A stretch of DNA of 42,891 nucleotides from Acidobacteriaceae bacterium (GTDB lineage Bacteria; Acidobacteriota; Terriglobia; Terriglobales; Acidobacteriaceae), in the NCBI GenBank assembly GCA_003135315.1, contig PLBD01000467.1, positions 8,120 through 51,010 on the forward strand, read 5' to 3'. Made by a program: the position numbers and the translations under genes. Position 1 is the first letter of the stretch, and the number at the start of each line of letters is the position of its first letter. The notes beneath the pieces were generated by a model. It saw nothing but the letters and a program-made list of their open reading frames with translations, was not told the DNA's origin and did not search any database. Positions 5,287-39,887 of this stretch are shown here, in pieces.

Positions 5287-5290
5287 GCGG

Positions 5291-9889: not shown

Positions 9890-10084
9890 TGGGTAGGCTC
9901 TCCAAACTGTCTGGACCTCTGTATGAGGTGTTGGCAGCCGATGTTGCGACGCCAACCCTGTAGTAACTCTAGTGTGCCGGTTTTTGTGCGGAAACTGGCG
10001 CCGGCGCCGGCCGCGACCGGCCGGCACAGTCCATGATATTCAATAGCTTATCATTATTGCGCTGCACTAAAAAGAGACAAATTA

Positions 10085-12623: not shown

Positions 12624-12629
12624 TTTTCC

Positions 12630-13616: not shown

Positions 13617-13637
13617 TCAAGCCTCAGGGAGCAAAGG

Positions 13638-19419: not shown

Positions 19420-20050
19420 ATGTCCGCCTGGATCTTCGAACAAGTTGTCACGCCCATGCAGGTGCTTTTCATTGCTTCTTTAAGTCAAGAGGAAGCCCGC
19501 GAGCTGCTGGATTCCCTCGACGCTTCGACCCTCGTGGGGTTACGCGATCGTGCCCTAATCGCCACCATGATCTACACCTTTGGACGCGTCGGGGCGGTGA
19601 TCAAGATGCGGGTCGAGGACTACTACACCCAGGGTCGTCGGGGCTGCGTGCGATTGCATGAGAAAGGTGGAAAGCGTCATGAAATGCCCTGCAACCACAA
19701 TCTCGAGGCGTATCTGGATGCCTACATCAATGCTGCGGGTCTGGCCGGCGACCTGAAGGGGCTACCTGTTCCGGACTGTACGCGGTCGTGGCCGAGCGCT
19801 CACGACGAATCCCCTCGCCCAGGCGGACGTCTATCGGATGATTCGTCGTCGGGCATTCAAGGCGGGAATCAAGACCAGGATCGGCAATCACACATTCCGG
19901 GCGACGGGGATTACACAGTACCTGCGCAACGACGGCCGGCGCGAGCTCGCGCAACAGATGGCGGCGCATGAGTCGCCGCGCACGACGGCGCTATATGATC
20001 GGCGGGATGATGAGGTGGCGGTGGATGAGGTGGAGAGGATCCTAATCTGA
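19420..20050 (+). pseudogene. Tyrosine recombinase/integrase remnant: N-terminal ~100+ aa missing, plus a +1 frameshift
   Basis: Catalytic-domain motifs are split over two frames: GLRDRALIATMIYTFGRVGAVIKMRVEDY, VRLHEKGGKRHEMPCNH | YLFRTVRGRGRALTTNPLAQADVYRMIRRRAFKAGI, GNHTFRATGITQYL, MAAHESPRTTALYDRR. The frames join at the G-run 19758-19761. Homology begins right after the MFS stop. Confidence 0.8.
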
Positions 20051-25126: not shown

Positions 25127-26503
25127 ATGAGCGCCAGATTACTTATCATCGCACTGGATGCCACCGATCTGCGCCTGCTCCAGCGCCACATCGGCGCGGG
25201 GCGGCTTCCGGTGATTGCCGCATTACGAACTTATGGACGCTTCAAGACGTTGTCGGCAAGCGCGTGCGCGACGGACGCCGCGCTGTGGGCATCTTTCCAC
25301 TACGGCACCGAAATCGGCGAACACGGGCGCTACCATGACTATCTGAGACTCCAGGACGGGCGGCACGGACTGGCGGTTCAAAACGAGCAGCAACGCGACG
25401 CAATCTGGGATGAGCTGTCGCATCGTGGCATGCGGGTCGCAGTCTTCGATTTGCCGAAGAGCCGGGCTCCCGCACCAATCAACGGTCTCCACCTCACTGA
25501 TTGGCTAGTTCATGGCCGCACGTTTTCCCGCCCGTTGAGTTACCCGGTCGAGTTGGCGGAAGAGGTGCTTAACCGATTCGGCGAAGCGCCGCACAGTCGT
25601 TGTGATCGAATCTGTGAGGAGCTGACCGATCCTCAAATCTCGCAGGTATGCGCTCATCTGCGGCAGTCGGTTTCCATGAAACGACTTGCCGCCCTGTCTT
25701 ATCTGGCACGTGAGCCATGGGACTGCTTCGCTGTCAGTTTCATGGAGATCCATTGCTGCAGTCACGGTTTCTGGAATCTGATTGACCCAGGTCACCCGGC
25801 CCACGATCCTGCGAGAAGCTCGCGCCTCGGCGATCCCTCAGTCGAGATTTTCCAGGACATTGATCGCGCGCTCGGCGATCTTGTCACTGCCGCGGGCCAG
25901 AATTCCGAAGTGATCGTATTTTCCACGTCGGATTTTCAGGCGAATGGAACAGTAAACCATCTGCTGCCTCAAATCGTCCTGCAGCTGAACAAATTTATTT
26001 GGAACCACGGCGCCGCATCGTTACTGCCCAGATCGAACTGGGGTGTGAAAATGTTGCCGTACAATGAGAACGCCTGCGCGCTGCGTTTATCCTGTATACC
26101 ACGTATATCACGCGCATACGAGGCACCACCAGACGGCAGCCGCGCAACAACGATTAAGGAGCTGGAGGACATCTTGCGAAAAATCTCCGATCCCGCCACA
26201 GGCGAGACAATATTTGAGGCGTTTCACCGACCGTCGAGTGACTATGCGGGAGTAAGATCCCACTGCCTTCCCGATATGTTGCTGGTTCCAAGGGCTGGCG
26301 TGTTTCCGCAAATGGTGGTATCCCCGGAACTTGGTTGTATCAGGGGTGAGGTGCCCAGCTGGAGGCTCGGCAACCATCGCGACGGTGGCTTCGTGATCGC
26401 GCGCGGCGCCGCAGTCGAAGCAATGATTGGTGGAGTCGATTCGCTCGCGCAACTAAGCCGGGGTGTAAGCAACGCGCTGTTGACCCGACCCCTATTGACA
26501 TAA
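25127..26503 (+). CDS. Alkaline-phosphatase-superfamily protein (nucleotide pyrophosphatase/phosphodiesterase-like), divergent
   Basis: The N-terminus LLIIALDATDLRLLQRHIGAGRLPVIAAL...SASACATDAALWASFHYGTEIGEHG follows the type-I phosphodiesterase layout. I could not confirm several catalytic positions. Confidence 0.45.
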   Translation: MSARLLIIALDATDLRLLQRHIGAGRLPVIAALRTYGRFKTLSASACATDAALWASFHYGTEIGEHGRYHDYLRLQDGRHGLAVQNEQQRDAIWDELSHRGMRVAVFDLPKSRAPAPINGLHLTDWLVHGRTFSRPLSYPVELAEEVLNRFGEAPHSRCDRICEELTDPQISQVCAHLRQSVSMKRLAALSYLAREPWDCFAVSFMEIHCCSHGFWNLIDPGHPAHDPARSSRLGDPSVEIFQDIDRALGDLVTAAGQNSEVIVFSTSDFQANGTVNHLLPQIVLQLNKFIWNHGAASLLPRSNWGVKMLPYNENACALRLSCIPRISRAYEAPPDGSRATTIKELEDILRKISDPATGETIFEAFHRPSSDYAGVRSHCLPDMLLVPRAGVFPQMVVSPELGCIRGEVPSWRLGNHRDGGFVIARGAAVEAMIGGVDSLAQLSRGVSNALLTRPLLT

Positions 26504-26517
26504 GTCGGGAGCAATCG

Positions 26518-27318
26518 ATGAGCGTCAGGCTGAACCTTTTTCTCAAGGGTAATCTTGATGTGTGCGATACCCTGTTCGGCCAGCGCCTGACAGGCAGGAT
26601 GGGTTGGAATGGTATCAATGAGGTATTGCGGGCAGTCGACCGCGCTGTCACGGTGCGCGTACGACACGAACCGAGTATCGGCTTCGCGGCGCACGCGGCC
26701 GCAAACGCGGTGGTGCCGCGCGAGCTGTCCGATCGCTCCGCGCTACTTGGACCGTTCACTCCCGCGCTGCAGTTCAGTGATTCGGCGTTCACGTGGCCGC
26801 ACGCGGCCCTGGTGATGTCGGTGCAGGCGGATTTATGCGTTCCGCTGCTTCGTCATCGCACGCTGGACTATCTGATGCATCCGTACGATCTGAGGTGCTG
26901 GCCGGCGGCGGATCTGGACTGGCTCAAGTTGCATTTCGTCCCCGAACCGGCACCGGGCGCCGAACGCAGCATGCAGGATCTTGCCCAGGTGATTGATCGC
27001 TACCGCCGCACGAGCGAAGCGCCGATCCTGGTGTTCAATATGTCCAGCGTGGTGCCGGGTGAGACGATTCATAGCTATCGGGGCGCAGCCGATGCGACGT
27101 CCCAGCGGATCCGACGCTTCAATTGCGCGCTAGTGGACGCTTCTGCCGAATTAGGCTTTTCAATTGTCGACGTTGATAGGATCATTGCGGAACACGGAGC
27201 CCGCCAGCTCAAGTTTGACCCGATTCACTTCAATGCCGAAGGGTGTCGCCTGGTGTGCGAAGACGTGGTCAGGATTCTCGATGATTATGGTGTGCTCGCC
27301 GAAGGGCAGGACTCGTGA
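26518..27318 (+). CDS. SGNH/GDSL-fold-like protein (paralog 1), block I degenerate
   Basis: The C-terminal DPIHFNAEG is a DxxH block-V-like motif. PILVFNMSSVVPGE...RIRRFNCALVDASAELGFSIVDVDRIIAEHG is shared with two paralogs. The N-terminal KGNLDV replaces the usual GDS. Confidence 0.45.
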   Translation: MSVRLNLFLKGNLDVCDTLFGQRLTGRMGWNGINEVLRAVDRAVTVRVRHEPSIGFAAHAAANAVVPRELSDRSALLGPFTPALQFSDSAFTWPHAALVMSVQADLCVPLLRHRTLDYLMHPYDLRCWPAADLDWLKLHFVPEPAPGAERSMQDLAQVIDRYRRTSEAPILVFNMSSVVPGETIHSYRGAADATSQRIRRFNCALVDASAELGFSIVDVDRIIAEHGARQLKFDPIHFNAEGCRLVCEDVVRILDDYGVLAEGQDS

Positions 27319-28337
27319 AGGTCAGCGTCGTCATTCGCACTCATGACGAGGCGCCGCGTCTGCGTCTGACGCTGGCATCTCTCAAACGGCAGGACCACCT
27401 GTCGGAAGTGGTCGTCGTCGACGACGGTTCCACCGACACCACCGCGGATGTAATCGATGAGGCCTCGTCGTTTCTTCCAATTGTTCGGCTGCGTCACGGC
27501 ACAGCGAAGGGGCGCTCGGCGGCGTCCAACGCCGGCGCCCACGCTGCGTGCGGCGACATCCTCATCATGCTTGACGGCGACATGCCGGTGGCTCCGGGAT
27601 TTGTCGCCGCGCACGCGACTGCGCACGAGCGCGGCGGCGTCATCGGTCGCGGAGCGTGTTTCAATTTACGCTGCACCCGATTCGTATACGACCCCGAACG
27701 GGTGATAGCGTTTCCTCATTGCGAGGAGCGGCTGCTAGGCGTGAGCAATGCGGAACGGGAACGCATGAGGGTGACACGCGCGGATATCGAGGATAACTTC
27801 GCCTCGATTGAGAGGCGCGCGCAACCCGGCATCTATCCCGGGTTCGGTCCTTGCCGGCTGGCCGAGATTGAAATGCATGCCCTGCGGGAGCACCCGGAGT
27901 GTGACGTGCTATGGGCAGCGGCCACCGGCAGCAATCAGTCTGTGCGCCGTGATTTGTTTCTCGCGGCCGGCGGATTTCACGAGCAGATGACCATCAACGA
28001 ACATAGGGAGCTTGCGCTGCGCCTGACGAGGCTCGGAGGCGTTATGCGTCCTGTCGAACAGGCTCGCTGTTACCATTTGACGCACCGGTCCGGATGGCGC
28101 AGTCCGTTTGAGGATACGCAGTGGGAAACACTGTTCTGGGAACGGCACCCGCTTCCGGAGGTCGCGCTGATGCCAGTGCTGTGGGCCAGCCTGTCCGATC
28201 ATCCTTCGATACCCTCCGAGCACAAGATCCTGTCTCTACCGGCGCTGGCCGCCGCCGCCCATCGCACGCGCCATGTCACCGCCCGATCTGCCGCTGAATT
28301 CCGTGCGTCCTTAGGGCTGCGGGAATCATTCGCATGA
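27315..28337 (+). CDS. Glycosyltransferase family 2
   Basis: VSVVIRTHDEAPRLRLTLASLKRQ, VVVVDDGSTDTT and ILIMLDGDM (DxD) are present. GTG 27315 overlaps the upstream stop (GTGA). Confidence 0.8.
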   Translation: MKVSVVIRTHDEAPRLRLTLASLKRQDHLSEVVVVDDGSTDTTADVIDEASSFLPIVRLRHGTAKGRSAASNAGAHAACGDILIMLDGDMPVAPGFVAAHATAHERGGVIGRGACFNLRCTRFVYDPERVIAFPHCEERLLGVSNAERERMRVTRADIEDNFASIERRAQPGIYPGFGPCRLAEIEMHALREHPECDVLWAAATGSNQSVRRDLFLAAGGFHEQMTINEHRELALRLTRLGGVMRPVEQARCYHLTHRSGWRSPFEDTQWETLFWERHPLPEVALMPVLWASLSDHPSIPSEHKILSLPALAAAAHRTRHVTARSAAEFRASLGLRESFA

Positions 28338-29173
28338 CCGCCAGTGTCGGGAGCGCACGTCTTGCTGTGCGCTGCGCGCCCACAGAGCGTGCGCTGTGGC
28401 AGGCAGTGACCTCACGCCTGAATGAGGGATTGGGCGGCGCCCGTTCGTTTCAATCCGTGTGGCGGGATGATCTTTGCCCGGCCGCGGATGACGGCTGCGA
28501 TGTTCTGTGTTTGTCGATGTTGCCCGATCTATCTCGACCCCGCAGCGACTGGCCGGCCATCGAGGCACAGTGGCGCCTGGATGCCGCGGCGCTGCGTGAC
28601 CGTGAGCTGGAACGCGGCGCCACGGTGTTCATCGTCACTCTATTTCGCTACACCACGGGCGAAGACGATGCGCTGCTGCCCATGCTGCGCAGGCTCAACC
28701 TGCTGGCCGCGCGCCTGTCGCAGGAGTTCGGGCTGTTCGTGATCGATATCGATCGGATATTTGCCCACGCGGGAGGCATGGAGCTGCGTGCCGATGTGCG
28801 GCTTGCCTCCGCTGAAGCACGGCGCTCGGCGGCTGACCTGATCGTGGGCAGCCTGCTGAGCGTTGGCATCGATCATGTTGCTGAGCCAGCGGCGATCCAG
28901 GCTGCGCGCAGCTGGCATGAATCGCACTGCGTGGTCGGATCAGCGGGCCATTCCACCGCAGCCAGTTCGGGACAAATGAAGCGCAGCTATGTGAGAGGTC
29001 GCACCCAGACATCTTTGACCCAGTCGCACGACGTTTACGGAGGCATACGCAGCGTACTGCGGGATCTTTGCGCTGCGCGACTCGGTCTCAGGTGGCGGAT
29101 GCCGTTGCTGTTCGCGCTGTGGCGGATGGCCTCCGGCCGAGTGATCGGTGGGATCGGCAGGCAACGCATATGA
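28334..29173 (+). CDS. SGNH-fold-like protein (paralog 2), catalytic motifs apparently lost
   Basis: TVFIVTLFRYTTGEDD...LRRLNLLAARLSQEFGLFVIDIDRIFAHAG aligns by eye to paralog 1. No DxxH motif is present. There are ATGA overlaps at both ends. Confidence 0.4.
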   Translation: MTASVGSARLAVRCAPTERALWQAVTSRLNEGLGGARSFQSVWRDDLCPAADDGCDVLCLSMLPDLSRPRSDWPAIEAQWRLDAAALRDRELERGATVFIVTLFRYTTGEDDALLPMLRRLNLLAARLSQEFGLFVIDIDRIFAHAGGMELRADVRLASAEARRSAADLIVGSLLSVGIDHVAEPAAIQAARSWHESHCVVGSAGHSTAASSGQMKRSYVRGRTQTSLTQSHDVYGGIRSVLRDLCAARLGLRWRMPLLFALWRMASGRVIGGIGRQRI

Positions 29174-30105
29174 CCGCGAGCAGCGACATCGATGCGCTGG
29201 CAGCGATGATACTCGCTCGCGAACTGGAGTCGGCGCTGTCGAAGCGGGCGGATTGCGGGTTTCAATTGCTCTCCAGCGGCCAGGAGGCCGTGGCGGTGGG
29301 GGTGGCCGCTGCGCTGCTGGCGCACGATCAGTTGTTGTGCAGCGGCCGCTCGATTGCGCCCGCACTGGCGCGAGGTCTGGACCCCGGGAGGGTCATGGCC
29401 GAGTTAATCGGGCGGGCATCGGGTCCTTGTTTAGGGCGTGGCGGACGCGGTCATTTGTCGCAACCCTCCGCGGGTTTCTTCGGTGCACATGCCGTCGTCG
29501 CCGGGAACCTCAGCATTGCCGCCGGGGTCGCCTTGGCACTGCAGGCTCGGCGCGATCGAAGCATTGCCGTTTGCATGTTCGGTGACGGGGCTTGCGGTGC
29601 AGGCGCGCTGCACGAAACCATGAATATTGCAGCGCTGTGGCAACTGCCACTGCTGCTGGTGTGTGACAATAATCTGTACTCCGTCTCCACACCACGGGCA
29701 GCGGCCCTGGCCCCGCAGCGATTGTCGGATCTTGCGGCTCCCTTCGGTATCGAGGCCTGCACGGTCGATGGCATGGATGTGCGCGTGGTACGCGAAGCCG
29801 CGGTCGAATTGACCGACTATGTTCGTAACGGTGGTGGCCCTGCGTTCCTGGAATGTATATCGCGCCGGTACGCTTCGCATTCGACTTCGGCGCGAGAGAC
29901 GCGGGGACAGCAGGAACTGGCGGCGGATCGAGAACTGGATCCAATCACTCGGCTCGAGAATGCCTTGCTGTCGGAGGGCGCGTTGAGCGCGCAAACCGCG
30001 CAGGCGCTGCGCGAGCAGGTACGGGCCAAGGTAGCGGCTGCCTGTGCCTTTGCCGATCTGTCCCCGTTACCTGTGCCAGAGGAAGCATTCGCTGATGTCG
30101 TCTGA
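29170..30105 (+). CDS. Thiamine-diphosphate-dependent 2-oxoacid dehydrogenase E1 component, alpha subunit (AcoA/PdhA-like)
   Basis: SSGQEAVAVGV and the TPP motif MFGDGACGAGALHETMNIAALWQLPLLLVCDNNLYSVST are present. ATG 29170 overlaps the upstream stop (ATGA). Confidence 0.85.
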   Translation: MTASSDIDALAAMILARELESALSKRADCGFQLLSSGQEAVAVGVAAALLAHDQLLCSGRSIAPALARGLDPGRVMAELIGRASGPCLGRGGRGHLSQPSAGFFGAHAVVAGNLSIAAGVALALQARRDRSIAVCMFGDGACGAGALHETMNIAALWQLPLLLVCDNNLYSVSTPRAAALAPQRLSDLAAPFGIEACTVDGMDVRVVREAAVELTDYVRNGGGPAFLECISRRYASHSTSARETRGQQELAADRELDPITRLENALLSEGALSAQTAQALREQVRAKVAAACAFADLSPLPVPEEAFADVV

Positions 30106-31084
30106 GCCCGTGCGCACACGCAGGGTGTTCTTTCGCGAAGCGATCTGTCGAGCCGTTGGCGAGACGCTCGACGCCGAACCCAACGCCATTGTCATGGGCC
30201 AGGATGTGGGAGCGTTCGGGGGATCCTATAAGGAGTTTTACGGGCTGTTCGAACGCTTTGGTCCCGCGCGGGTGCGCGATACGCCGGTCGCCGAGGCGGC
30301 TATGGTGGGACTGGGTGTTGGCGCGGCCGCCGCGGGCCTGCGCACTCTGGTGAGCATTACCTACATGGACTTCGTGCTGCTCGCCCTGGATCCGCTGGTC
30401 AATTACGCTGCCAAGGCGCGATTCAAGACAGGCGGGCAGATTCGGGTTCCCATGGTGGTCAAATTGACGGCGGGCGCCAAGGGGCAGGGCGTTGCCCACT
30501 CTCAATCGCTGGAGTCGTGGCTCATGTCGGTGCCAGGGCTTCGTGTGGTCGCACCGTCCAACGTCGCGGACGCTTACGGCTTGATGCGATCCGCGCTTCA
30601 GGCCGATGGACCCGTGGTCTATGTCGATCACAAGCGACTCTTCCCGACGTCGGGCCCGCTGAATGCTTCGGCGCATGAGGTGCCCTTCGGCCTGGCGGCT
30701 GTCTCCCGTCCGGGCAGGCATGCGACCATTGTGACTCACTCCTATATGGTCTGCGTGGCGCTGGCTGCCTGCGATGAGCTTGCGGTCAGTGGCATCGACT
30801 GCGAGGTGATCGACCTGCGCAGCCTCGCACCATTGGACCTGGCAACCGTCTGCACATCGGTGTCAAAAACCGGTGCGCTTCTCACGCTTGAGGAGGGGCA
30901 GGTGGTGTGCGGGATCGGTGCCGAGATCGCCTATCAGGCGCAGGCGAGGCTGGGACCCGTCAGAGTATCGCGACTGGGAGCAATGCCAGCGCCTGTTTCG
31001 TCGAATCCAGTGCTGGAGGCCGCCAGTCTGCCGGATGCCGGGCGCGTCGCCGATGCGGTTCGTCGTCTACTCATGGAAGGATAA
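30095..31084 (+). CDS. 2-oxoacid dehydrogenase E1 component, beta subunit
   Basis: IVMGQDVGAFGGSYKEFYGLFERFGPARVRDTPVAEAAMVG, HSQSLESWLMSVPGLRVVAPS and IDLRSLAPLD are present. ATG 30095 overlaps the alpha-subunit gene by 11 nt. Confidence 0.85.
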   Translation: MSSEPVRTRRVFFREAICRAVGETLDAEPNAIVMGQDVGAFGGSYKEFYGLFERFGPARVRDTPVAEAAMVGLGVGAAAAGLRTLVSITYMDFVLLALDPLVNYAAKARFKTGGQIRVPMVVKLTAGAKGQGVAHSQSLESWLMSVPGLRVVAPSNVADAYGLMRSALQADGPVVYVDHKRLFPTSGPLNASAHEVPFGLAAVSRPGRHATIVTHSYMVCVALAACDELAVSGIDCEVIDLRSLAPLDLATVCTSVSKTGALLTLEEGQVVCGIGAEIAYQAQARLGPVRVSRLGAMPAPVSSNPVLEAASLPDAGRVADAVRRLLMEG

Positions 31085-31086
31085 CG

Positions 31087-31392
31087 ATGCTTTATAAACT
31101 GCTCTTGCCGGGCCCAATTGTTGATCTGTCAGAAGTGCGCGTGCTGGAGTGGCATGGATCGCCAGGAACACAATTCAATCCCGGCGATCTCGTGCTTGAA
31201 CTCGATACGCACAAGGCCGTCGTGGAAATGCGCGCGAGCTCGAAAACAGTATTGCGCAAGATTCTGATAGAACCCGGGGAGTGGCAGCGAGTCGGCGAAC
31301 CTCTGGCCATTGTCAGCGACAGCGCTGATGAGCCACTGCCCGAGCGCGCCGAGGATCTCGCTCAGGCGAGCGTCATCTATGAAATGGTTTGA
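31087..31392 (+). CDS. Free-standing lipoyl/biotinyl-attachment-domain protein (101 aa)
   Basis: VRVLEWHGSPGTQFNPGDLVLELDTHKAVVEMRASSKTVLRKILIEPGEWQRVGEPLAIV has the E2 lipoyl-domain layout, with a Lys at the hairpin tip (DTHKA). ATG 31087 is 2 nt after the E1-beta stop. No E2 catalytic domain follows. Confidence 0.75.
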   Translation: MLYKLLLPGPIVDLSEVRVLEWHGSPGTQFNPGDLVLELDTHKAVVEMRASSKTVLRKILIEPGEWQRVGEPLAIVSDSADEPLPERAEDLAQASVIYEMV

Positions 31393-32753
31393 GCGCGCGG
31401 GAGGGCGAAAAATTCACGCTGTTCGAGGATATGAAGGATTTCCCCGCGTACTTCGTCCTGCATAGGGCCACTTTGATGCACGCCGTCTGGCAAGTGTGCC
31501 GCGGCACCCAGACCGGCCGCGATCGAATCCACATCGACGATCGCGATATCTGTCTCCTCAGCGAGATCATGCAGCATGAGATTGAGCTCTTTCGCTCGCA
31601 CGCTGGGGAGTTCGTCGCCGAGCGCCTGGGAGAACGGAGCGTAAGTGAAGATGCTCTCGCCTCCGGAGGTAGACAACGCGTTCATGATCAGGACATGTCT
31701 GACGCCCCGCTCGGCCAGTAGTTTGCGCAACTCTCTAAGATCAGTCTGAATGTCGTCTATCGTGCGCGACAGGGGCTCAAAATTGACGTTGAGCCAGTTG
31801 CGGATCGCCTGCCCGGTTGTATCCACTCGGAAGCGGTGCCAGTAGGCTCGGTAGCCCAATTTTCTGTGGCGAAGAACGACCTTCGGCTCCGCATTCACTG
31901 AAAGCACCACCGCATCGACCGCGACGGGGGGCGATAGGCCCTGCCTGGTGAGCAAATCGTACCGCTCGCTCAGCGGGCAGCGCGTCAGCGCGCTCAGTGC
32001 ACTGCCGGCGTAATGCCAGTCGGCCGGACCAGGTGTGACGGGACCACTGAGAACGGCCTGTGTCATGTCAGCAGCTAGCAGCGCGTTCGTCGCAGCCGTG
32101 CGTCGCATGCGGTCCGCCAGGACCGCTGCCGCCGGAACCAGATTCTCATCACCCACATGGATAACATGCAATGAGCCCGGACTTGCGGCCAGAAGTTCAG
32201 AGAAATCGTGTTGCTCGCCAAGAAAGATGCCGTTCTGTTCGCAAGTGCCAAGGCTGACCAAGGTTCCATGGCCTGAACGTTCGCCGTGCCATGCTCGCCT
32301 GATCCTGCGCCAGCCGGTGAGTCGCCCGGATCGGTCTTCCGCCAGTTCAGTCATCCGCTCTCCGGCCGAGAAGATCAACTGCCACCGCGACTGATTGCCA
32401 GCGCCGGAGGTGATATCCAGCGACCCCGGGATGAAACGCTCGCTCCAATGCTGATATCGATCAAGTTGATCGAGCCAACCTCCGCGTGATGCGTCGGGTA
32501 ACTGGTGCAGAGTGCCTGGCATCGGCGCCGCGAGTGTGACCTGAAGATCTGTTTGTTCGCGAGGAAACGGAGCCGTTGAGCGGATCTTGCCGTCCGACGA
32601 TCGAAGCCCGATGTTGCAAAAGGCGATCGGCTCACCTGCGCGGCACACATGTCTGTCCGACACCAACCAACGCAGCCCCGAGCGATAGATCACAAAGTTA
32701 TCGCACGTCAATGGTCCCAACGTAAGATCGAGCATTGTCACCAGGGCTGCCAT
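31377..32753 (-). CDS. 458-aa protein: N-terminal lipoyl-like barrel half + unknown middle + C-terminal SGNH-like domain (paralog 3)
   Basis: The N-terminus is FVIYRSGLRWLVSDRHVCRAGEPIAFCNIGL. The C-terminus VRHVLIMNALSTSGGESIF...VRAKELNLMLHDLAEETDIAIVDVDSIAAGLG...LPDGVHQSG aligns by eye with paralogs 1 and 2. ATG 32753 overlaps the upstream gene by 16 nt. Confidence 0.5.
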   Translation of the reverse strand: MAALVTMLDLTLGPLTCDNFVIYRSGLRWLVSDRHVCRAGEPIAFCNIGLRSSDGKIRSTAPFPREQTDLQVTLAAPMPGTLHQLPDASRGGWLDQLDRYQHWSERFIPGSLDITSGAGNQSRWQLIFSAGERMTELAEDRSGRLTGWRRIRRAWHGERSGHGTLVSLGTCEQNGIFLGEQHDFSELLAASPGSLHVIHVGDENLVPAAAVLADRMRRTAATNALLAADMTQAVLSGPVTPGPADWHYAGSALSALTRCPLSERYDLLTRQGLSPPVAVDAVVLSVNAEPKVVLRHRKLGYRAYWHRFRVDTTGQAIRNWLNVNFEPLSRTIDDIQTDLRELRKLLAERGVRHVLIMNALSTSGGESIFTYAPFSQALGDELPSVRAKELNLMLHDLAEETDIAIVDVDSIAAGLGAAAHLPDGVHQSGPMQDEVRGEILHILEQREFFALPRAQTIS

Positions 32754-33091
32754 TGCCGCGTGACGCCGACGACGGTCGTGCGCAATGCCCTAGGGGCGCA
32801 ATTCTCCAAGGCTTCGTCGGATGTCTTGCTGAATGTTGCTACCAGCGCGCCGACGGCAATCTTGTCGCCCGCCGCGATTGCGACGTGCCGGAGCCACGCC
32901 ACCTCAGCCGCGCAGAGTCGATAGTAGGAGACGGGAGGACAATCATGCGGAAATTGATCGCTCAGATCTACCGTCAACTCCAGGATCGCTTGCCCGACCG
33001 CGATCTTCTTGTCGGGGCGTACGAGTATCGAGTCGACGCGGGCATGGGCCATGTGCGGATTGATCAACGGCAATGAGAGCTCAAGCAACAT
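32738..33091 (-). CDS. Lipoyl/biotinyl-like barrel-sandwich domain protein lacking the modifiable lysine
   Basis: ARVDSILVRPDKKIAVGQAILELTVDLSDQ ... AWLRHVAIAAGDKIAVGALVATF mimics the two halves of a lipoyl domain, but has ELTVDLS where E(T/S)DK is expected. I prefer ATG 33091, with AAGGA 5 nt upstream; the track starts at GTG 33109. Confidence 0.5.
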   Translation of the reverse strand: MLLELSLPLINPHMAHARVDSILVRPDKKIAVGQAILELTVDLSDQFPHDCPPVSYYRLCAAEVAWLRHVAIAAGDKIAVGALVATFSKTSDEALENCAPRALRTTVVGVTRQWQPW

Positions 33092-33208
33092 CAGGGTCCT
33101 TCGCGGCACAAAATCAGGGTTTTCATCGCCCCGCGTACCTAGTTTAAGTTATCACCTTACTGAATCCGGTACCATGTACCTCCTGGCATAATCGCCCGAG
33201 CTTCCTGA

Positions 33209-34528
33209 ATGATTCACGGCCTTCCTGCGGTCACGGGGATGCGTACCGCGACCGTCGCAACAGCCCTGGAATATCTCGCGTGGGTGAGCAACCGCGTGGA
33301 CACGGCCTATGAGGCGTCGGGTGACCTGCTCGCGCAGATGCGTGTGGTGCTGGATCGATTCGTTCGCGCCGGACTGCCTTACGATACTGGGCCGGACGGC
33401 CGCCCCCGATTCGATCTTGTCGAACTGCGAAACTTCGTCCTTGTCGCGGATCAGCGCTTCGATGATCCGTTCTGGCGCCAATACGTCATGCCATTTGGAA
33501 AGCGGATCATGTTCGAGGCATACGCCGATGGCGAATCCGATAGATACGACGAAGACTCGTGCGCCAATGCGGCACGGGCTCTCTCGCCGCGGCGATTTCG
33601 CCTGCGACTGACCCGCACGTACGATCCGCGTTTTCTCAAGAAGACGCAGATCTGTCGCCTACGATTGCCGGTCCCTCTCGAGGACTCGGTGCTTACCGAC
33701 CTGCGCATGCAGCTGTCTGCGCCGAAAGAGAAAGACATCATCAGATGCAGCCGGTCCGCCGGGCGGCTCGACGTGACGGTCGACCCACGTAAAGTGTCCG
33801 AGCTTTCCTGCGCCGTGACCTATGAATTTGTCTGTGACCCCGGGAGATGCTTTTCGAAAAGCGCAATCAACCTGCGTGAAGAAGCGCTCGCGCTCGGGTC
33901 AGCGGAAAAACTGATCCGACTCACACCGGCGGTGCATGAGCTCGCAGAAAAACTCGTTGGGAGCGAGGCCGATGCGCTGAGGATTGTGCGCCTTCTCTGG
34001 GACTATCTGCATGCGAGGCTCAATATCGGAGCGCTGCGTTATTCGCAACTCGATCCGGCCGATCCGCTGATGTCAGTGCTAAATGTGGGTTGGGCAGATT
34101 GTCAGCTTGCGTCTGCAGTCCTGGTCGGACTCTGTCGGTCACGTGGGCTGGCGGCGCGAATCGTGGGCGGCTTCATGCTGCAGCATGCGCGGCCCGGGTA
34201 TCATTACTGGGCGGAGATATGGATTGCTGGACGCGGCTGGACCCCATTCGACACGCTTGGATTTGCGGTGACTCGGCCAGGGGATCGATCTGACTGGCGC
34301 AACATCTTCTTTGGTCGCGTCGATTATCGTGCTCGAGTGGAGTGTCTGCCGCATCTCTTTACCGGCCTGCCAGGATTCCAGCTCCCGCTCGCCTGGCATC
34401 AGAATGTTTCGCACATCGAGGGCGGTATCCGCACCCGCCTCGAAGATTCAAATAGCGGTGAACCCGTCTTCTCGGACGACGTGAGTTGCGAGGTTTTACA
34501 GTGGGATCAATCGGGCGCGGAGATTTGA
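33209..34528 (+). CDS. Transglutaminase-like cysteine protease superfamily protein
   Basis: The core is GWADCQLASAVLVGLCRSRGLAARIVGGFML...GYHYWAEIWIAGRGWTPFDT, which supplies a Cys-His-Asp arrangement. Confidence 0.75.
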   Translation: MIHGLPAVTGMRTATVATALEYLAWVSNRVDTAYEASGDLLAQMRVVLDRFVRAGLPYDTGPDGRPRFDLVELRNFVLVADQRFDDPFWRQYVMPFGKRIMFEAYADGESDRYDEDSCANAARALSPRRFRLRLTRTYDPRFLKKTQICRLRLPVPLEDSVLTDLRMQLSAPKEKDIIRCSRSAGRLDVTVDPRKVSELSCAVTYEFVCDPGRCFSKSAINLREEALALGSAEKLIRLTPAVHELAEKLVGSEADALRIVRLLWDYLHARLNIGALRYSQLDPADPLMSVLNVGWADCQLASAVLVGLCRSRGLAARIVGGFMLQHARPGYHYWAEIWIAGRGWTPFDTLGFAVTRPGDRSDWRNIFFGRVDYRARVECLPHLFTGLPGFQLPLAWHQNVSHIEGGIRTRLEDSNSGEPVFSDDVSCEVLQWDQSGAEI

Positions 34529-35283
34529 AAAATGGCGCCATCAAAGTTCGGGGCAACGAGGCTGACACCATCGAGTGCCGATCCAAATGCGGCTAGCTGA
34601 GAGCGAAGCTGGACTTCCTGACGAAGAATGCGTCGACGCGAAATGCCCAGGCGATTGGTACGCATTTGGTGATGCTCCATTTCATATGTATTGTGTCCGT
34701 GGCTGACATAGACATAGAGATGCGGCTTGTCGCGAAGAGTGGTGAGTACGCCTGCTGCGATGAGCTGCCGTGCGACCGCCAGCTCCTCTCCGCGGCGAGC
34801 GTCGTCGCCGAGCTCGGGATATGAAATGCCAGCATCCCTCTTGCATTGCAACGTACCGGGGTGACCGCGCGATTCGCTGGCATACCAATTGGTCCACCAC
34901 AGTCGCATCGTCATCGGGTAATACTGAAGCACATCCTGCAGAAACACGACTTTCGCGCCCGTGTTGGTCAAACCGGCCACCTGATCGGCGACTCGCTGTC
35001 ACTGATGCAAGTCGTCGTCATCCCACTGGCACAGGAACGCGCCAGTAGATAAACGCATGCTCAGGTTGCGCAAGGCGCCCAGTGTCATGCCGTCCTCGAC
35101 GATGGTGGTCCGCACGCCCGCTACGTCCATCGAATTCATCAGATCTCGTACAGGATGAGGAGCATCCGGGTCCTTGGCATCTGTGACGATCACCAATTCA
35201 ACGCACGGATACGTCTGCTGCTTGAAACAGGTAATAGCAGTGGAGAGTCCCGGCAGGCGCTCGGGAGTCCCCTTGGTGACCAT
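34507..35283 (-). pseudogene. Glycosyltransferase family 2 gene interrupted by an in-frame TGA (34999-35001)
   Basis: Two track ORFs (34999..35283 and 34507..34980) are in the same frame. Read through, they give ...AFLCQWDDDDLHQ*QRVADQVAGLTNTGAKVVFLQDV.... The first part has QQTYPCVELVIVTD and the DDDD (DxD) motif. Confidence 0.7.
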
Positions 35284-35620: not shown

Positions 35621-36727
35621 TCACAGCGCCAGTGACGCTGACAGGTGCGGCTTCAGTTTTTTGGCCGCAATTGGCGCGTTCTCCACGCTCAGAACGTTCA
35701 TATGGTCACCTGGCAAATCGATGACGTGGCAACGTCCGTCGGTCAATGCTGCCCAACCCGTAATCACCGTGTCGTATCTGTAGGCAACTCGGTACGTCTG
35801 CCGATCAATGGCACGAAAGATCAGGATCGAGCCGCCATAGGGTGTTGGCTGATAGCGCGCGATCGCGCGATTGTTGGCCGCCTCCACCTCGCGTGCAAAT
35901 GCTTCCTCTTTCGGGAGTTCATGGATTTCGGCCATCGCAGGGAGGTGTAATTCTGCGCTGCGCAGCTGTTGGCGATGCGCCAGGCGCTCGCGAATATATT
36001 TTCGCCTGCCAGGGTGCGCGGCCAGTATCCAGGCGTGGTAGGCCGCTCGCTGCCACCTCGGCCGTATAGCGAAACCGTCCGGTGTCGACGTGTCAAACAT
36101 CGCCAGCAGGGAGACGGTCTCGCCCGCTGCGGTGAGTTGCTGCGCTGCTTCAAAGGCCGGCAGTCCCCCATAGGAATAGCCTGCCAATTGGTACGGCCCT
36201 CTGGGCTGCACGCGGCGCAGGTTCTCGAGCATCGCGGCTGCGATATCCTCGATCTTCTCGAGCGGCGCCTGCTCCCCGTTGAAGCCAGGCACGGTCAACC
36301 CGTAGCAGGGATAATCGGGTGCAAGACACATCGCCATGGGCGCGAACGTCACAGGGTGACCTCGGGCGCCGGGAAAGCAGAACAGCGGTAGTACGTGTCC
36401 CTGCGGTTGCAGGTCGATCACGCCCGGCCGGGCGGTCGCGACAGCGGCGACTTCGGGGTTGGTCAGCGCCTCCGCAATCGCATCGATGGTCGGATAATCC
36501 CATAGCAACGTGGCAGGCAATTCGCGATCCAGCCAGCCCGCCAGCGCGCCGGCGAGTCCTAGTGCCTTGAGCGAATCGACGGCGAACGAGTACAGCGGTG
36601 CATTGGAGTCGATCGACGAGCGTTCGAGTTCCACCAGCTTTGCCACTTCGGTGACGACCCAGTCGCGAATATCCGCGGCGGATGGCTCAGTTGTCTGAGG
36701 TACGACTTTAGATGACGCTTTGGGCAT
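35621..36727 (-). CDS. Acyl/peptidyl carrier protein domain fused to a thioesterase (alpha/beta hydrolase) domain
   Basis: The carrier motif is LYSFAVDSLKALGLAGAL. The TE part has LFCFPGARGHP and the nucleophile elbow LAGYSYGGLPAFEAA. ATG 36727 overlaps the FAAL gene end by 20 nt. Confidence 0.8.
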   Translation of the reverse strand: MPKASSKVVPQTTEPSAADIRDWVVTEVAKLVELERSSIDSNAPLYSFAVDSLKALGLAGALAGWLDRELPATLLWDYPTIDAIAEALTNPEVAAVATARPGVIDLQPQGHVLPLFCFPGARGHPVTFAPMAMCLAPDYPCYGLTVPGFNGEQAPLEKIEDIAAAMLENLRRVQPRGPYQLAGYSYGGLPAFEAAQQLTAAGETVSLLAMFDTSTPDGFAIRPRWQRAAYHAWILAAHPGRRKYIRERLAHRQQLRSAELHLPAMAEIHELPKEEAFAREVEAANNRAIARYQPTPYGGSILIFRAIDRQTYRVAYRYDTVITGWAALTDGRCHVIDLPGDHMNVLSVENAPIAAKKLKPHLSASLAL

Positions 36728-38441
36728 CCGGCATCTCTTCGAGTAGGTCGAGTGTTCGCGACAGATAGGCAGCGCGCGTGCCCAGGCGGCTGACCTTTCC
36801 GCTTGTGGTTCGCGGTACCGCTCCGGGACTCAGCAGAATGACCTCGTAAGGCGATACCTCGTTGAGTGCGACCACTGCGGCGCGAATGCGCTGCCGCACG
36901 GCCGCGGGATCCAGCAGGCGCGCTGTGCCGGACGCGGCCGTCCGGCGATACTCGCGCCGTACCTCAGCAGCGATGATTAACCGTTCGGCGCCGTCCAGGT
37001 CGAGCGAAAATGCAACGGCGCCGGACGATGCAATCGCCGGGTCAGCCGACTCGACGCTGCTTTCGATATCGGTGGGAAAATGATTGCGTCCGGCGACGAT
37101 GATCAGCTCGCGCAGGCGTCCGGTAATGAACAGTTCGCCGTCGGCGATAAAGCCCAGATCTCCGGTGCGAAGCCATTTATGGTCGCTGGCGGTTGGCATG
37201 TTCTCAGCGATACCGGCACCGAATGCCGCCGCAGTAGCCGGCGGATTGTTCCAATAGCCTTGAGCGATGCTGGCGCCCGCCAGCCAGATCTCACCGATCT
37301 CACCGGAGCTGACTCGCATGGCTGTCGTCGGGTCTACGATGGCGATCTGTGTGTCACCGAAGGCATGGCCACAGCCAACGTGGCCGCCGGTCTCGGCCTC
37401 GTCGAGCAAGTTGGCGTCCGCATCGCGGCGCGTCCAGCGGCGGCGAGCCGCGGATGGCCCGGCGACGAAAAGTGTAGCTTCAGCCAGGCCGTAGCATGGA
37501 AAGAATGCCTCCGGTCGAAATCCACACTGTGCGAATGCAGCCGCGAAACGCTCCAGGGTTGCGGCACGAACCGGCTCGGAGCCGTTCAGTGCATTGCGCC
37601 AATGGCTCAGATCCAGTTTCGCCTTGTGTGCGGCGCTGATCTTCTCGACGCACAGGTCATAGGCGAAGTTGGGAGCAGCGCTGCCGCACGCGCGATAATC
37701 GGACATCATCTGCAGCCACAGCCAGGGCTGCATCAGAAACCGCTCCGGCGCCATGAATACGCAATGCGCCCCCGAATAGGCTGCCTGCAGTACAAAGCCG
37801 ATGAGTCCCATGTCGTGGAACAGCGGCAGCCAGCCGGCAATGGTCTCTCCGGCACGCAGTCCACTGGCCTCGGTGATCAAAGCGCTGTTGCACACCAGAT
37901 TGTCGTGCGTGACCATGACGCCGCGTGGCGTTCCAGTGGAGCCGGATGTGTATTGCAGCAATGCGACGCGTTGGCCTGCTGATGAGATGGGAGGTGATTC
38001 GCTGACCGGGATACCGACCGCATCGGCATCGATCCAGGTCAAGGCAGTAAAGGCGCTCGTATCGCCAGGATCGGGCTGCAATCGTTGGCGCGTAGCCGTA
38101 GTGGCAATCGCAAAGCGCGCTCCGGCGTCAGCGACGATGGCCTTGAGCCGATGCTTGAGGCGCTGGTGTCGGGGCAGGCTGACCGGCACGATGATGGCGC
38201 CCGCATGCCAGCAGGCGAACAGCCATTCGACGAACGCCAGACCTGAGGGCAATGCCAGCAGCACCGGCTGGCCGCTGGCGCCCTGCAGACGCAATGTCTC
38301 CCCGAGCGCCGTGGCGCGGTGAGCGAGCTGCGACCAGGTGATGGACCGGACGCCAGCGCTGCCATCGGCGAGGAAGGTGTACGCCTTGGCATCCGGGTCG
38401 GTCACGGCGCGGCGGCGGACGATGTCCCACAGCGTCTGCAT
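36708..38441 (-). CDS. Fatty acyl-AMP ligase (FAAL; adenylate-forming enzyme)
   Basis: LLQYTSGSTGTPRGVMVTHDNLVCNS, the FAAL-like N-terminus (AYTFLADG...ITWSQLAHRA...WHAGAIIVPVSLP), and TGDLGFI..GELFITGRLRELIIVAGRNHFP are present. The ATG directly follows the P450 stop (TAAATG). Confidence 0.85.
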   Translation of the reverse strand: MQTLWDIVRRRAVTDPDAKAYTFLADGSAGVRSITWSQLAHRATALGETLRLQGASGQPVLLALPSGLAFVEWLFACWHAGAIIVPVSLPRHQRLKHRLKAIVADAGARFAIATTATRQRLQPDPGDTSAFTALTWIDADAVGIPVSESPPISSAGQRVALLQYTSGSTGTPRGVMVTHDNLVCNSALITEASGLRAGETIAGWLPLFHDMGLIGFVLQAAYSGAHCVFMAPERFLMQPWLWLQMMSDYRACGSAAPNFAYDLCVEKISAAHKAKLDLSHWRNALNGSEPVRAATLERFAAAFAQCGFRPEAFFPCYGLAEATLFVAGPSAARRRWTRRDADANLLDEAETGGHVGCGHAFGDTQIAIVDPTTAMRVSSGEIGEIWLAGASIAQGYWNNPPATAAAFGAGIAENMPTASDHKWLRTGDLGFIADGELFITGRLRELIIVAGRNHFPTDIESSVESADPAIASSGAVAFSLDLDGAERLIIAAEVRREYRRTAASGTARLLDPAAVRQRIRAAVVALNEVSPYEVILLSPGAVPRTTSGKVSRLGTRAAYLSRTLDLLEEMPDAQSVI

Positions 38442-39887
38442 TTACGAGACTGCCGGGTGCGCCACTGGCGTGCCGCTCACAAGTGCCGCGTGGCGCAACT
38501 CGATGGTCGCGGCCAAGCCCGGCGACAGTCGCAGCGTCACCCCGCCCTCGGGGCGGATCTCGCGGGCGTTGATCGGTCGTACACGGAATTCCTGGGCGAG
38601 TTGCGCCAGGAGCAGTGTTGCTTCAAGCAGCGCGAAATGCATGCCCAGGCAGATGTGGCGTCCACCCGCGAACGGCAAATAGGCGTCCCGATGCGTCGCC
38701 TGTGCGGGCGAATTGGCGAACCTGCCCGGATCGAAGCGCTCCGGATCGGTCCAGAATTCCTTGTGCCGATGCGTAATCCACGGGGAAATCAGGACATTGG
38801 CGCCACGCGGCACTGTGTGGCCGCCGACCGTCGCCTCTTCGCTCGCGACGCGCGCCATGTACCAAACCGCTGGGTACATTCGCATCGTCTCGTGGAAGAT
38901 GGCCCGCGTCCACGGCAGTTTCGCAGCATCCGCAAGTTCGGCGGCTCGGCCGCCCAGCACCTGATCGAGCTCCTGGTGCAGGGTCAATTCGATGTCGGGA
39001 TGTTCTGCAATCGCTTTCCACGCCCAGCTCAGGGACAGGGCGGTGGTCTCGTGGCCCGCGATCAACAGCGACACGATCTCATCACGGATCTGCAGCTCGC
39101 TCATCGGTCCGCTCTCGGTATCGGCCTCGATAAGCAGCGTCAATAAGTCGGGCGGCCTGTCGCACGATGCCGCCGAACGCCGGCGGCGGATCATCTCATA
39201 AGCCACCTCGTCGAGGACGGCTTTGCTGGCGGTGATATTCGCAGCACTTTCAGGCGTGAAATGTGCGGGTATGCCGAATACAAGCCAGGAGAGTTTTCCC
39301 TGCTCGGTAATCGCGAGGGCTACGGCGGCGCAGAGCTCGCCAGCCTCGGTATCGGATAGATCATCGCTGAACAGGGCTTTGACGATGACCCGCATTGTCA
39401 GCTGCGTCATATCGATGGAGACGTCGACGGCGTGGCCGGCTGCAGCCGCCATCCGCCAGGCGACCGCGGTTCTGGCCGCTTCGCGCACCATCACCGGAAC
39501 CAGTGGCGCGACGCTGCGCGGAAGAAAGTCGCCCTGCATGACACGCCGCTGCGACTTCCAGCGAGGCCCTTCACTGACAAGCAAGCCTTCGCCAAGCACC
39601 ATCTTGATGAGCGACGCCCGGCGAAAGTTCTCATCGCGCAGGATGGTTTGCACATCCTTGGGATGTGCGAACAGGAAGCACGGCCCGAGGCGCGTCTGAT
39701 AACACACCGTGTCGCCATATTGCTGCCACAACTGACCGAGAAATCTCAGCGGGTCGACGTAACCGTCAAAGGAAATGACACGGGCGGGACCGGGCGTGGC
39801 TACCTTGGACGGCAAAGCTGGCGCAAGATCCGATGCAGCGACCCCCCTTTCAGGATGGTGGTCGTTGTCCTTGGAGGGTAAATTCAA
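38442..39887 (-). CDS. Cytochrome P450
   Basis: The heme-binding loop is FAGGRHICLGMHFA, ExxR is ETMRMYP, and the I-helix is LLIAGHETTA. The start is TTG 39887 in the track, with no in-frame ATG nearby; start uncertain. Confidence 0.85.
   Translation of the reverse strand: MNLPSKDNDHHPERGVAASDLAPALPSKVATPGPARVISFDGYVDPLRFLGQLWQQYGDTVCYQTRLGPCFLFAHPKDVQTILRDENFRRASLIKMVLGEGLLVSEGPRWKSQRRVMQGDFLPRSVAPLVPVMVREAARTAVAWRMAAAAGHAVDVSIDMTQLTMRVIVKALFSDDLSDTEAGELCAAVALAITEQGKLSWLVFGIPAHFTPESAANITASKAVLDEVAYEMIRRRRSAASCDRPPDLLTLLIEADTESGPMSELQIRDEIVSLLIAGHETTALSLSWAWKAIAEHPDIELTLHQELDQVLGGRAAELADAAKLPWTRAIFHETMRMYPAVWYMARVASEEATVGGHTVPRGANVLISPWITHRHKEFWTDPERFDPGRFANSPAQATHRDAYLPFAGGRHICLGMHFALLEATLLLAQLAQEFRVRPINAREIRPEGGVTLRLSPGLAATIELRHAALVSGTPVAHPAVS

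Follow-up and report, generated by a model that had tools for sequence, protein, structure and literature searches.

Lipoic acid is, to our knowledge, used by only a handful of systems, namely the 2-oxoacid and acetoin dehydrogenase complexes, glycine cleavage and, as recognized recently, sHdr sulfur oxidation. Here we analyze a 42,891-nucleotide stretch from an Acidobacteriaceae bacterium (assembly GCA_003135315.1, contig PLBD01000467.1, positions 8,120 to 51,010 of the forward strand; this whole stretch is referred to as the window). It encodes both subunits of a thiamine pyrophosphate (TPP)-dependent 2-oxoacid dehydrogenase (E1), followed by a small free-standing lipoyl-domain protein. An earlier note on this DNA had singled out these three genes. 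The finding is larger than first noted: judged by sequence comparison, the trio is part of a conserved module with two lipoyl-fold carriers, one armed with a lysine and the other with a cysteine. The partners that the note had missed are SGNH-fold proteins, one or two family-2 glycosyltransferases (GT2), a transglutaminase-like enzyme and the Cys-tipped lipoyl fold.

Four groups of described systems come closest. The acetoin dehydrogenase (AcoA/AcoB/AcoC, in part with AcoL) and alpha2beta2-type pyruvate dehydrogenase (PDH) complexes share with the module a heterotetrameric TPP-dependent E1, its catalytic residues and an E2-type lipoyl domain. In contrast to these complexes, the module possesses neither the catalytic part of an acyltransferase (E2) nor a peripheral-subunit-binding domain nor a dihydrolipoamide dehydrogenase (E3), and its E1 subunits score under the equivalog cut-offs. 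Moreover, the module E1s are at least 55% identical to each other but less than 45% identical to homologs in a plasmid collection or to the reference enzymes, and their partners are glycosyltransferase, SGNH and transglutaminase-like genes instead of catabolic genes. The QncN/QncL/QncM and SclQ1-4 proteins form glycolicacyl-ACP (ACP, acyl carrier protein) in tetrahydroisoquinoline and scleric acid biosynthesis, respectively, and resemble the module in that a TPP-dependent E1-like enzyme and a lipoyl arm act outside central metabolism and pass a small acyl unit to an acceptor other than coenzyme A (CoA) (PMC6335953). However, their lipoyl domain is fused to an E2-type acyltransferase and works with a dedicated small ACP (PMC6335953), and the module has neither. 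Hence, these pathways do not provide the natural-product precedent for an E1 with nothing but a lipoyl carrier that the earlier note had invoked, whereas its general idea, transfer of an acyl or two-carbon (C2) unit on a lipoyl arm to a non-CoA acceptor, stays viable. AviB1/AviB2 and Plm8/Plm9 are PDH-like E1 pairs that lack E2 and E3 and are clustered with glycosyltransferases, as in the module (PMC4802897), but they are accompanied by nucleoside diphosphate (NDP)-deoxysugar genes and have no lipoyl protein, while the reverse applies to the module. Finally, GcvH, as well as LbpA of the sHdr system, are small free lipoyl proteins that serve enzymes other than an E2/E3 complex (PMC6067878). These belong to the H-protein family and have glycine decarboxylase or Hdr-like partners, in contrast to the E2-type carrier (PF00364) with a PDH-like E1 found here. 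Going by its predicted gene content, the module is thus not a 2-oxoacid dehydrogenase complex, a Qnc/Scl pathway or a sugar-branching E1 pair.

The module consists of about nine genes, with a conserved core at 26518-34528 and accessory genes from 25127 to 35283:

25127-26503, plus strand: accessory alkaline-phosphatase/phosphodiesterase-superfamily (AlkP-like) protein, 458 amino acids (aa) (PF01663, E=1.5e-12)
26518-27318, plus strand: SGNH/GDSL-fold paralog 1, 266 aa, probably catalytic (Lipase_GDSL_2, E=2.4e-7)
27315-28337, plus strand: soluble GT2, 340 aa (PF00535, E=2.6e-21)
28334-29173, plus strand: SGNH-fold paralog 2, 279 aa, probably non-catalytic (hhalign to paralog 1)
29170-30105, plus strand: E1 alpha, TPP-dependent 2-oxoacid dehydrogenase subunit, 311 aa (PF00676, E=1.1e-58; GDG(X)26NN motif)
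30095-31084, plus strand: E1 beta subunit, 329 aa (Transket_pyr, 3.2e-32; Transketolase_C, 2.9e-27)
31087-31392, plus strand: free-standing lipoyl-domain carrier, 101 aa (PF00364, Biotin_lipoyl, 29.3 bits, E=7.7e-7; cut-off 22.1)
31377-32753, minus strand: 458-aa protein with a C-terminal SGNH-fold domain (hhalign, AlphaFold2 and Foldseek)
32738-33091, minus strand: second lipoyl-fold protein, 117 aa (hhalign, AlphaFold2 and Foldseek)
33209-34528, plus strand: transglutaminase-like Cys-His-Asp enzyme, 439 aa (PF01841, E=2.5e-15)
34507-35283, minus strand: accessory second GT2-like gene (GT2b), interrupted (tblastn with the intact 258-aa ortholog of locus L005)

A scan for the lipoyl protein family over 185,579 species genomes retrieved relatives in 119 of them, and 84 loci were fetched and searched by tblastn with the proteins of the window. 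The lipoyl protein was matched in all 84 loci, E1 beta in 83, the 458-aa SGNH protein in 81, the second lipoyl-fold protein (as its 123-aa reading frame) in 79, E1 alpha in 77, the 266-aa GDSL-like protein in 76, the transglutaminase-like enzyme in 70 and the GT2 in 68. The 279-aa protein was found in 53 of these loci by tblastn, and in 65 by blastp at a lower coverage threshold. Contig ends account for most of the shortfalls in these counts. A second scan, seeded independently with the 458-aa SGNH protein, yielded 61 loci, which together with three from context look-ups made a set of 64 that gave the same picture of the gene set. The conserved order comprises, on one strand, the genes for the GDSL-like protein, the GT2, the 279-aa type protein of no described family, E1 alpha, E1 beta and the lipoyl protein, followed by a convergent pair of likewise unassigned genes (~455 and ~120 aa) and, nearby, the transglutaminase-like gene. 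Gene order was identical to that of the window even in distant members from Burkholderiaceae and other metagenome-assembled genomes (MAGs), whose lipoyl proteins share 50-52% identity with the one studied here.

According to the lipoyl-seeded scan, most hosts belong to the Alpha-, Beta- and Gammaproteobacteria, and a few are Acidobacteriota and other MAGs. The second scan added Methylocapsa palsarum, Methylocella silvestris, Novosphingobium lentum, and MAGs of Eremiobacterota and Verrucomicrobiota. Most module-bearing species originate from soil, peat and freshwater, and culturable carriers include Labrys okinawensis DSM 18385, Labrys miyagiensis, Methylocella silvestris TVC, Methylocapsa palsarum NE2, Novosphingobium lentum and three Gluconacetobacter species. 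The module may spread by horizontal transfer; a search of PLSDB for plasmid carriage retrieved no match to the 458-aa marker protein. No transmembrane segment was predicted in any module protein, and by these predictions the module is soluble, self-contained and cytosolic. Full-text literature searches returned no description of it, and PADLOC had no match for 10 module proteins. No model in NCBIfam, Pfam or PADLOC covers the 266-, 279-, 458- or 117-aa proteins as a family, the sole match among them being a partial, below-cut-off GDSL match of the 266-aa protein, and source annotations call proteins of these types hypothetical. All-against-all clustering of the open reading frames (ORFs) in the loci added GT2b as the only real accessory family, the remaining clusters being mostly artefacts of antisense ORFs in GC-rich DNA. 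Across the window, neither Rfam families nor tRNAs were detected, and promoter and terminator scans performed no better than on shuffled sequence.

The E1 alpha, E1 beta and lipoyl genes lie where the earlier note had placed them, and their ORFs, Pfam matches and motifs, including the lysine at the tip of the carrier, agree with its assignment. From the GT2 gene to E1 beta, neighboring genes overlap by 4-11 nucleotides (nt) and are translationally coupled. The GT2 gene shares 4 nt with each of its neighbors, E1 alpha starts in an ATGA overlap with the preceding gene, E1 alpha and E1 beta overlap by 11 nt, and the lipoyl gene starts 2 nt past the E1 beta stop. The operon, whose first gene in the window is the AlkP-like gene with a 14-nt gap to the next one, ends with the lipoyl gene as had been noted, where the convergent minus-strand gene 31377-32753 overlaps it by 16 nt.

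Both E1 subunits retain the residues expected of an active enzyme of this class. In E1 alpha, all 70 orthologs share the GDG motif, N168 and H237, and 66 of them have N167; H237 corresponds to human alpha-His263, the histidine on which reductive acylation depends. In E1 beta, H135 is kept in all 79 orthologs and E67 in 77, with gaps in the remaining two. Among solved structures, human PDH E1 alpha (3.9e-41) and E1 beta (1.2e-55) gave the best matches, and both module subunits are nearest to PDH models in NCBIfam, albeit under the equivalog cut-offs (264.8 bits against 393.85 for TIGR03182 with E1 alpha; 276.1 bits against 321 for NF006667 with E1 beta). BLAST identities of E1 alpha and E1 beta, respectively, were 42% and 45% to a catabolic Azospirillum E1 that has its own E2, 35% and 40% to PdhA/B, 34% and 36% to AcoA/B, and 28% and 39% to BkdA1/A2. 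All 659 plasmid-borne E1 alpha homologs remained below 45% identity, whereas module orthologs from different proteobacterial classes are 55-71% identical to the protein of the window. The phylogenetic placement of E1 that the earlier note had proposed was addressed with a rough neighbor-joining tree, in which the module E1s formed one clade of their own, apart from all four references. In these alignments, the module E1 is a distinct, dedicated lineage of the PDH/acetoin type.

The match of the carrier to PF00364 is modest, but the assignment as a lipoyl domain is solid because three further comparisons concur. In NCBIfam, residues 5-80 are matched best by the N-terminal lipoyl domain of acetoin dehydrogenase E2 (3.5e-11). 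A profile built from 21 members of the carrier family matched solved PDH E2 lipoyl domains at E ~1e-14 and aligned K43 with the lipoyl-lysine in their ETDKA motif, while biotinyl domains reached ~1e-3 at best with the same profile. The tip motif of the family is E-T-H-K43-A, in which the lysine is preceded by His where the canonical residue is Asp; all 81 orthologs retain K43 and 78 retain H42. Seventeen residues are invariant (among them P8, G9, E16, R18, L20, W22, E38, T41, H42, K43, A44 and E47), the DEPLP tail is conserved, and length and stop position are kept across bacterial classes and several phyla, with nearly all of 48 database homologs being 101 aa long. A near-invariant Glu, located three residues from the C-terminal end of the Lys carrier, is a possible docking motif. 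Taken together, the trio may represent a working E1 of the heterotetramer (alpha2beta2) type with a dedicated single-domain lipoyl carrier, an interpretation that we hold tentatively as part of the full explanation given below.

The earlier note had found no E2 core or E3 gene nearby, and the extended searches bear this out. Pfam scans of all sizeable ORFs in the window detected neither the 2-oxoacid_dh family nor a Pyr_redox (pyridine-nucleotide disulfide oxidoreductase) family. Furthermore, E. coli AceF and Lpd, two proteobacterial E2s, AcoC, Rhizobium LpdA and LplA were used as tblastn queries against the window and the 148 related loci, which amount to 2.58 Mb and cover the surroundings within 10 kb of the module. 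No E2 catalytic core, E3 or lipoate ligase was retrieved from this sequence, and the E2 queries matched through their first ~75 residues, which are the lipoyl domain. The single exception was a weak match to the hydrolase part of AcoC (E=1.9e-5), located ~7 kb from the module in locus L035. The lipoyl domain carries no fused E2 catalytic part, whatever the fold, and no peripheral-subunit-binding domain. As the 101-aa length is conserved and E2 and E3 are absent from every related locus, the combination of E1 with a free lipoyl domain is, on this comparative evidence, a designed arrangement and not a truncated operon.

The second carrier is encoded on the minus strand and is co-transcribed with the 458-aa SGNH protein. 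Its longest ORF has 123 aa (to 33109), but most homologs are 117 aa long and have a Met six codons in, so the true start is probably at 33091. The family aligned with the lipoyl carrier family (hhalign 97.7%, E=1.4e-12), and an AlphaFold2 model (predicted local distance difference test score, pLDDT, 87.9) was matched by Foldseek to the lipoyl domains 3crk_C (target template-modeling (TM) score 0.79, root-mean-square deviation 2.4 A) and 1ghj (0.82 and 2.0 A). In place of the lysine hairpin, this protein has an 11-residue loop between strands 35-42 and 54-61, and the Cys of the motif D-C-P-P in this tip loop, C51, is invariant in 78 of 78 orthologs. The Lys carrier and the Cys carrier have a post-domain motif in common, F-S-x-x-D-E-P-L (then P or D), which suggests that they share a docking partner. 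Some homologs of the Cys carrier bear the JGI label 'E2 component', which evidently stems from the degenerate lipoyl fold. Foldseek also weakly listed the AstE/AspA-family proteins 3fmc and 3lwu for both the Cys carrier and the 458-aa SGNH protein.

Three module proteins are related by a predicted SGNH fold. Paralog 1 matches Lipase_GDSL_2 with its C-terminal half only (31.9 bits, just under the curated cut-off of 32.9 bits) and has the conserved residues S101, N174, D234 and H237. Its motifs align with those of the 458-aa protein (hhalign 99.7%, over the C-terminal 175 residues of the latter), in which S285, N358, D423 and H426 are the candidate residues. The aligned motifs are D-A-V-V-L-S, L-I-x-N-x-x-S, I-V-D-V-D and D-G/A-x-H. 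Paralog 2, which had no match in Pfam or NCBIfam, aligned with paralog 1 (hhalign 98.7%, E=2.3e-16) and keeps S61 and D154, whereas Thr replaces the block III Asn and the block V His is absent. The candidate Ser/Asn/Asp-His set is consequently complete in two of the three paralogs, the 266-aa and the 458-aa protein. For the latter, no sequence match was found in Pfam, NCBIfam or the PDB, where its family profile gave insignificant matches to hydroxynitrile lyases only. In the AlphaFold2 model (pLDDT 88.9, predicted TM score 0.89), an all-beta domain at the N-terminus is followed by a helical middle part and an alpha/beta domain at the C-terminus; the best Foldseek matches were the GDSL/SGNH esterases 4h08 and 7e16, which are weak (E ~1e-3, target TM ~0.5-0.6). 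A library-wide profile search with the 458-aa family listed members or fragments as the best 150 matches and no informative fusion, and a 702-aa match contains the SGNH half only. The all-beta part (residues 1-170) of the 458-aa protein is associated with two invariant cysteines, Cys46 and Cys171, and the stretch C-R-A-G-E-V-V-A-Y-C-N-I-G-L recalls a barrel-sandwich hybrid motif. As a third lipoyl-like domain it was rejected (hhalign probability 1-4%), and no such claim is made.

The best NCBIfam matches of the GT2, to EpsD and MftF-like models, were all far under the cut-offs, and the protein has no transmembrane segment. In the transglutaminase-like protein, C298, H332 and D348 are invariant in 25 orthologs and the family profile matched the protein-glutamine gamma-glutamyltransferase 6g49 at 2.4e-8, while its N-terminal half is uncharacterised. 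Two genes are accessory. The AlkP-like gene occurred in 9 of the 84 and 7 of the 64 loci, mainly in Steroidobacteraceae. An intact 258-aa GT2b follows the transglutaminase gene in about 32-36 related loci, whereas the copy in the window is interrupted by an in-frame TGA at 34999-35001 (DDDDLHQ*QRV, the asterisk marking the stop), where the L005 ortholog, 86% identical across the stop, has Ser. The GT2b of the window is thus probably a pseudogene or reflects a sequencing or assembly error.

Both E1 subunits are missing from four loci that are complete in other respects: L091, which lies on a 3.27-Mb contig, L123 from an Eremiobacterota MAG, L137 from Novosphingobium lentum NBRC 107847, and L149. 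All four keep the GDSL-like protein, the GT2, the 279-aa family protein, the Lys carrier, the Cys carrier, the 458-aa SGNH protein, the transglutaminase-like enzyme and the accessory GT2, and the tip motif of their Lys carrier is E-T-H-K, but E-T-N-K in L149. E1 is present in ~93% of complete loci. As these four loci retain everything but E1, the two carriers with their SGNH, GT2 and transglutaminase-like partners are, by this pattern of occurrence, the invariant core of the module and more central than the separable E1. The opposite case was observed in L031 and L033 (Novosphingobium), which have E1, both carriers, one SGNH protein and a GT2 and are without the 458-aa and transglutaminase-like genes.

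Our best explanation, put forward tentatively and as something short of probable, is that E1 would load an acyl group onto the lipoyl carrier and that the acyl-handling folds of the module would take the place of the E2 core and of CoA chemistry. Housekeeping LipB/LipA or LplA would first lipoylate K43 of the 101-aa carrier. E1 would then decarboxylate a small 2-oxo acid, or cleave an acetoin-like or other keto substrate, and reductively acylate the lipoyl arm. The resulting S-acyl-dihydrolipoyl thioester would be taken up by a Ser enzyme of the SGNH fold, for which the 458-aa protein is the prime candidate, as its gene is co-transcribed with that of the Cys carrier and faces and abuts the lipoyl gene. 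Alternatively or additionally, the transglutaminase-like Cys enzyme may act as acceptor, possibly with passage through the invariant Cys of the second carrier. The final recipient of the acyl group would be a glycosyl acceptor made by the GT2 enzyme or enzymes, so that an acylated glycoside or glycoconjugate results, and the ordinary Lpd of the cell would re-oxidise the dihydrolipoyl arm in trans. Replacement of the E2 core by a hydrolase fold has a precedent in proteobacterial AcoC, which combines a lipoyl domain with a transferase of the alpha/beta-hydrolase fold instead of a core resembling chloramphenicol acetyltransferase.

Several observations weigh against this explanation. For the SGNH, transglutaminase-like and GT2 proteins, fold is the sole basis of the role assignment, and we infer the lipoylation, the E1 substrate and the acyl transfer. 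The nucleophilic Ser of SGNH block I was deduced from its conserved position, as the Pfam alignment covers the C-terminal half only. The His that takes the place of the canonical Asp before K43 could point to another kind of modification or to another modifying enzyme. Conservation with the module does not extend to any sugar-nucleotide gene, transporter or regulator, so that no acceptor is indicated. Lastly, the E1-less loci imply that either E1 is supplied in trans or the core job of the carrier needs no E1.

Among the alternatives, the one that survives best is a redox relay, although we regard it as unlikely. Here, E1 and the carrier would oxidise keto acids and thereby generate a dihydrolipoyl-protein, an SGNH enzyme would hydrolyse the acyl thioester, and the reduced arm, or the Cys carrier by thiol-disulfide exchange, would serve the other enzymes as a dedicated reductant or thiol donor. 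This would fit two carriers whose tips offer thiol chemistry at equivalent positions, both of which are kept in the E1-less variants, and also the typical activity of SGNH enzymes as esterases or thioesterases and the lack of conserved acceptor-building genes beyond the GT2. An example of a free-standing lipoyl protein in a non-acyl role is LbpA, which acts in sHdr sulfur oxidation (PMC6067878). However, the module contains no conserved redox enzyme (peroxiredoxin, Hdr or thioredoxin-like), three SGNH paralogs are too many for a simple thioesterase step, and the GT2 and the transglutaminase-like enzyme would be left without a role.

Somewhat less plausible still is C2 branching of a sugar as by AviB1/B2 and Plm8/Plm9, in which E1 would move a pyruvate-derived C2 unit from TPP to a keto-sugar for the GT2s and the lipoyl protein would be auxiliary or regulatory. 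An E1 alpha-beta pair without E2 and E3 beside glycosyltransferases is an established pattern of deoxysugar pathways (PMC4802897), and one or two GT2 genes are indeed conserved with the E1 of the module. The known systems, however, have no lipoyl protein, whereas here the lipoyl carrier is conserved more strongly than E1 and its Lys is invariant, as is the alpha-His tied to lipoyl acylation. In addition, no NDP-sugar 4,6-dehydratase, epimerase, reductase or other deoxysugar gene occurs in the module.

It is improbable, too, that K43 is not lipoylated and that the transglutaminase-like enzyme instead attaches a different acyl or prosthetic group to it, in which case the lipoyl-fold proteins would carry or receive a new modification and E1 would be an add-on. 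Transglutaminase chemistry makes N6-acyl-lysine bonds, the catalytic triad of the enzyme is invariant and its gene is strongly linked to the module. Consistent with this alternative are also the invariant His that replaces the Asp before K43, the occurrence of E1-less variants and the lack of a lipoate ligase in cis. On the other hand, the domain scores as lipoyl far above biotinyl, and E1, with its prevalence in complete loci, is translationally coupled to the carrier gene. Moreover, the H-protein also lacks the Asp, and lipoylation of E. coli E2p does not strictly depend on the residues that flank the lysine.

The earlier note had connected the trio to an ACP-containing protein in the same stretch, by analogy with natural-product pathways, here represented by Qnc/Scl. 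The gene is real and is part of an operon located 4-8 kb downstream, on the opposite strand and separated from the trio by three other module genes:

35621-36727, minus strand: ACP-thioesterase (ACP-TE) protein (PP-binding, 1.8e-10; Thioesterase, 5.6e-29)
36708-38441, minus strand: adenylating enzyme resembling fatty acyl-AMP ligases (FAAL-like)
38442-39887, minus strand: cytochrome P450

In this model, a C2 unit from a keto substrate would be handed via the lipoyl arm to the ACP and the product tailored by the FAAL-like enzyme and the P450. Proximity of the three genes and the C2-to-ACP transfer of Qnc/Scl speak for it, but the hand-off found no support, and we consider it very improbable. 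ACP-TE was matched in none of the 84 lipoyl-seeded loci and FAAL and P450 in two each (24-27% identity), and co-occurrence was equally lacking in the other 64. Over all 148 loci, no full-length ACP-TE homolog was present beside the module, the only match being partial (23% identity, L114), and the few matches to the three proteins near the module had 23-27% identity and included no true companion. L005 and L006, whose lipoyl protein is 92% identical to that of the window, have no P450, FAAL or ACP-TE in the 6 kb beyond the module. Besides, the operon is on the opposite strand, and the E2-type acyltransferase domain of Qnc/Scl is absent. Given the lack of co-occurrence in relatives, the P450/FAAL/ACP-TE operon is a neighbor and not a partner of the module; it probably represents a small lipid or lipopeptide-type pathway of its own. 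For genome mining, this means that an E1/lipoyl pair should not be tied to the nearest ACP without a check of co-occurrence. Finally, a decayed acetoin or pyruvate dehydrogenase operon with its E2 cut down to the lipoyl domain, which the best curated match of the lipoyl protein to the AcoC N-terminus might recall, is hardly credible and was rejected, as the 101-aa length, the stop and the 17 invariant residues are conserved across classes and phyla and E1 forms its own clade.

The remaining part of the window contains other genes upstream of the module:

2569-5286: DUF499/AAA ATPase
5835-9467: UvrD/RecD-like helicase, 1210 aa
9509-10027: AlpA-family regulator
10210-11907: sulfatase/phosphoethanolamine-transferase-like protein
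11859-12947: CDP-alcohol phosphatidyltransferase
13985-15091: family-4 glycosyltransferase (GT4)
19420-19971: short phage-integrase fragment

The regions 1573-10027 and 19420-19971 have the flavour of a mobile element or defence island, and 10210-15091, which includes a 229-aa ORF of no assigned family, may be a separate cluster for a phospho-glycolipid head group.

Beyond the acyl-loading explanation favored above, in which the lipoyl arm feeds the SGNH and transglutaminase-like folds, the two carriers raise a bolder possibility, which we deem unlikely at present: an assembly with two arms that is independent of CoA and ACP. The lipoyl arm, loaded by E1, would be the acyl donor, the Cys carrier, as a paralog in which evolution exchanged the tip lysine for an invariant cysteine, would hold the acceptor or an intermediate (e.g. 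as an S-glycosyl installed by the GT2, or as a thioester), and the SGNH- and transglutaminase-fold enzymes would perform transfer and release. If true, this would be a new class of carrier-protein-templated biosynthesis with the first cysteine-armed lipoyl-fold carrier.

What is new in our results, as the gene neighborhoods suggest, is a PDH-like E1 with a minimal lipoyl carrier that does without E2 and E3 and is in fixed partnership with GT2, SGNH and transglutaminase folds and a Cys-tipped copy of the lipoyl fold. As the module is compact and soluble and culturable strains carry it, both the replacement of E2 and the cargo of the Cys arm are directly testable. The module would add another system to those that use lipoic acid, and suggests a use of this cofactor that is as yet undescribed.

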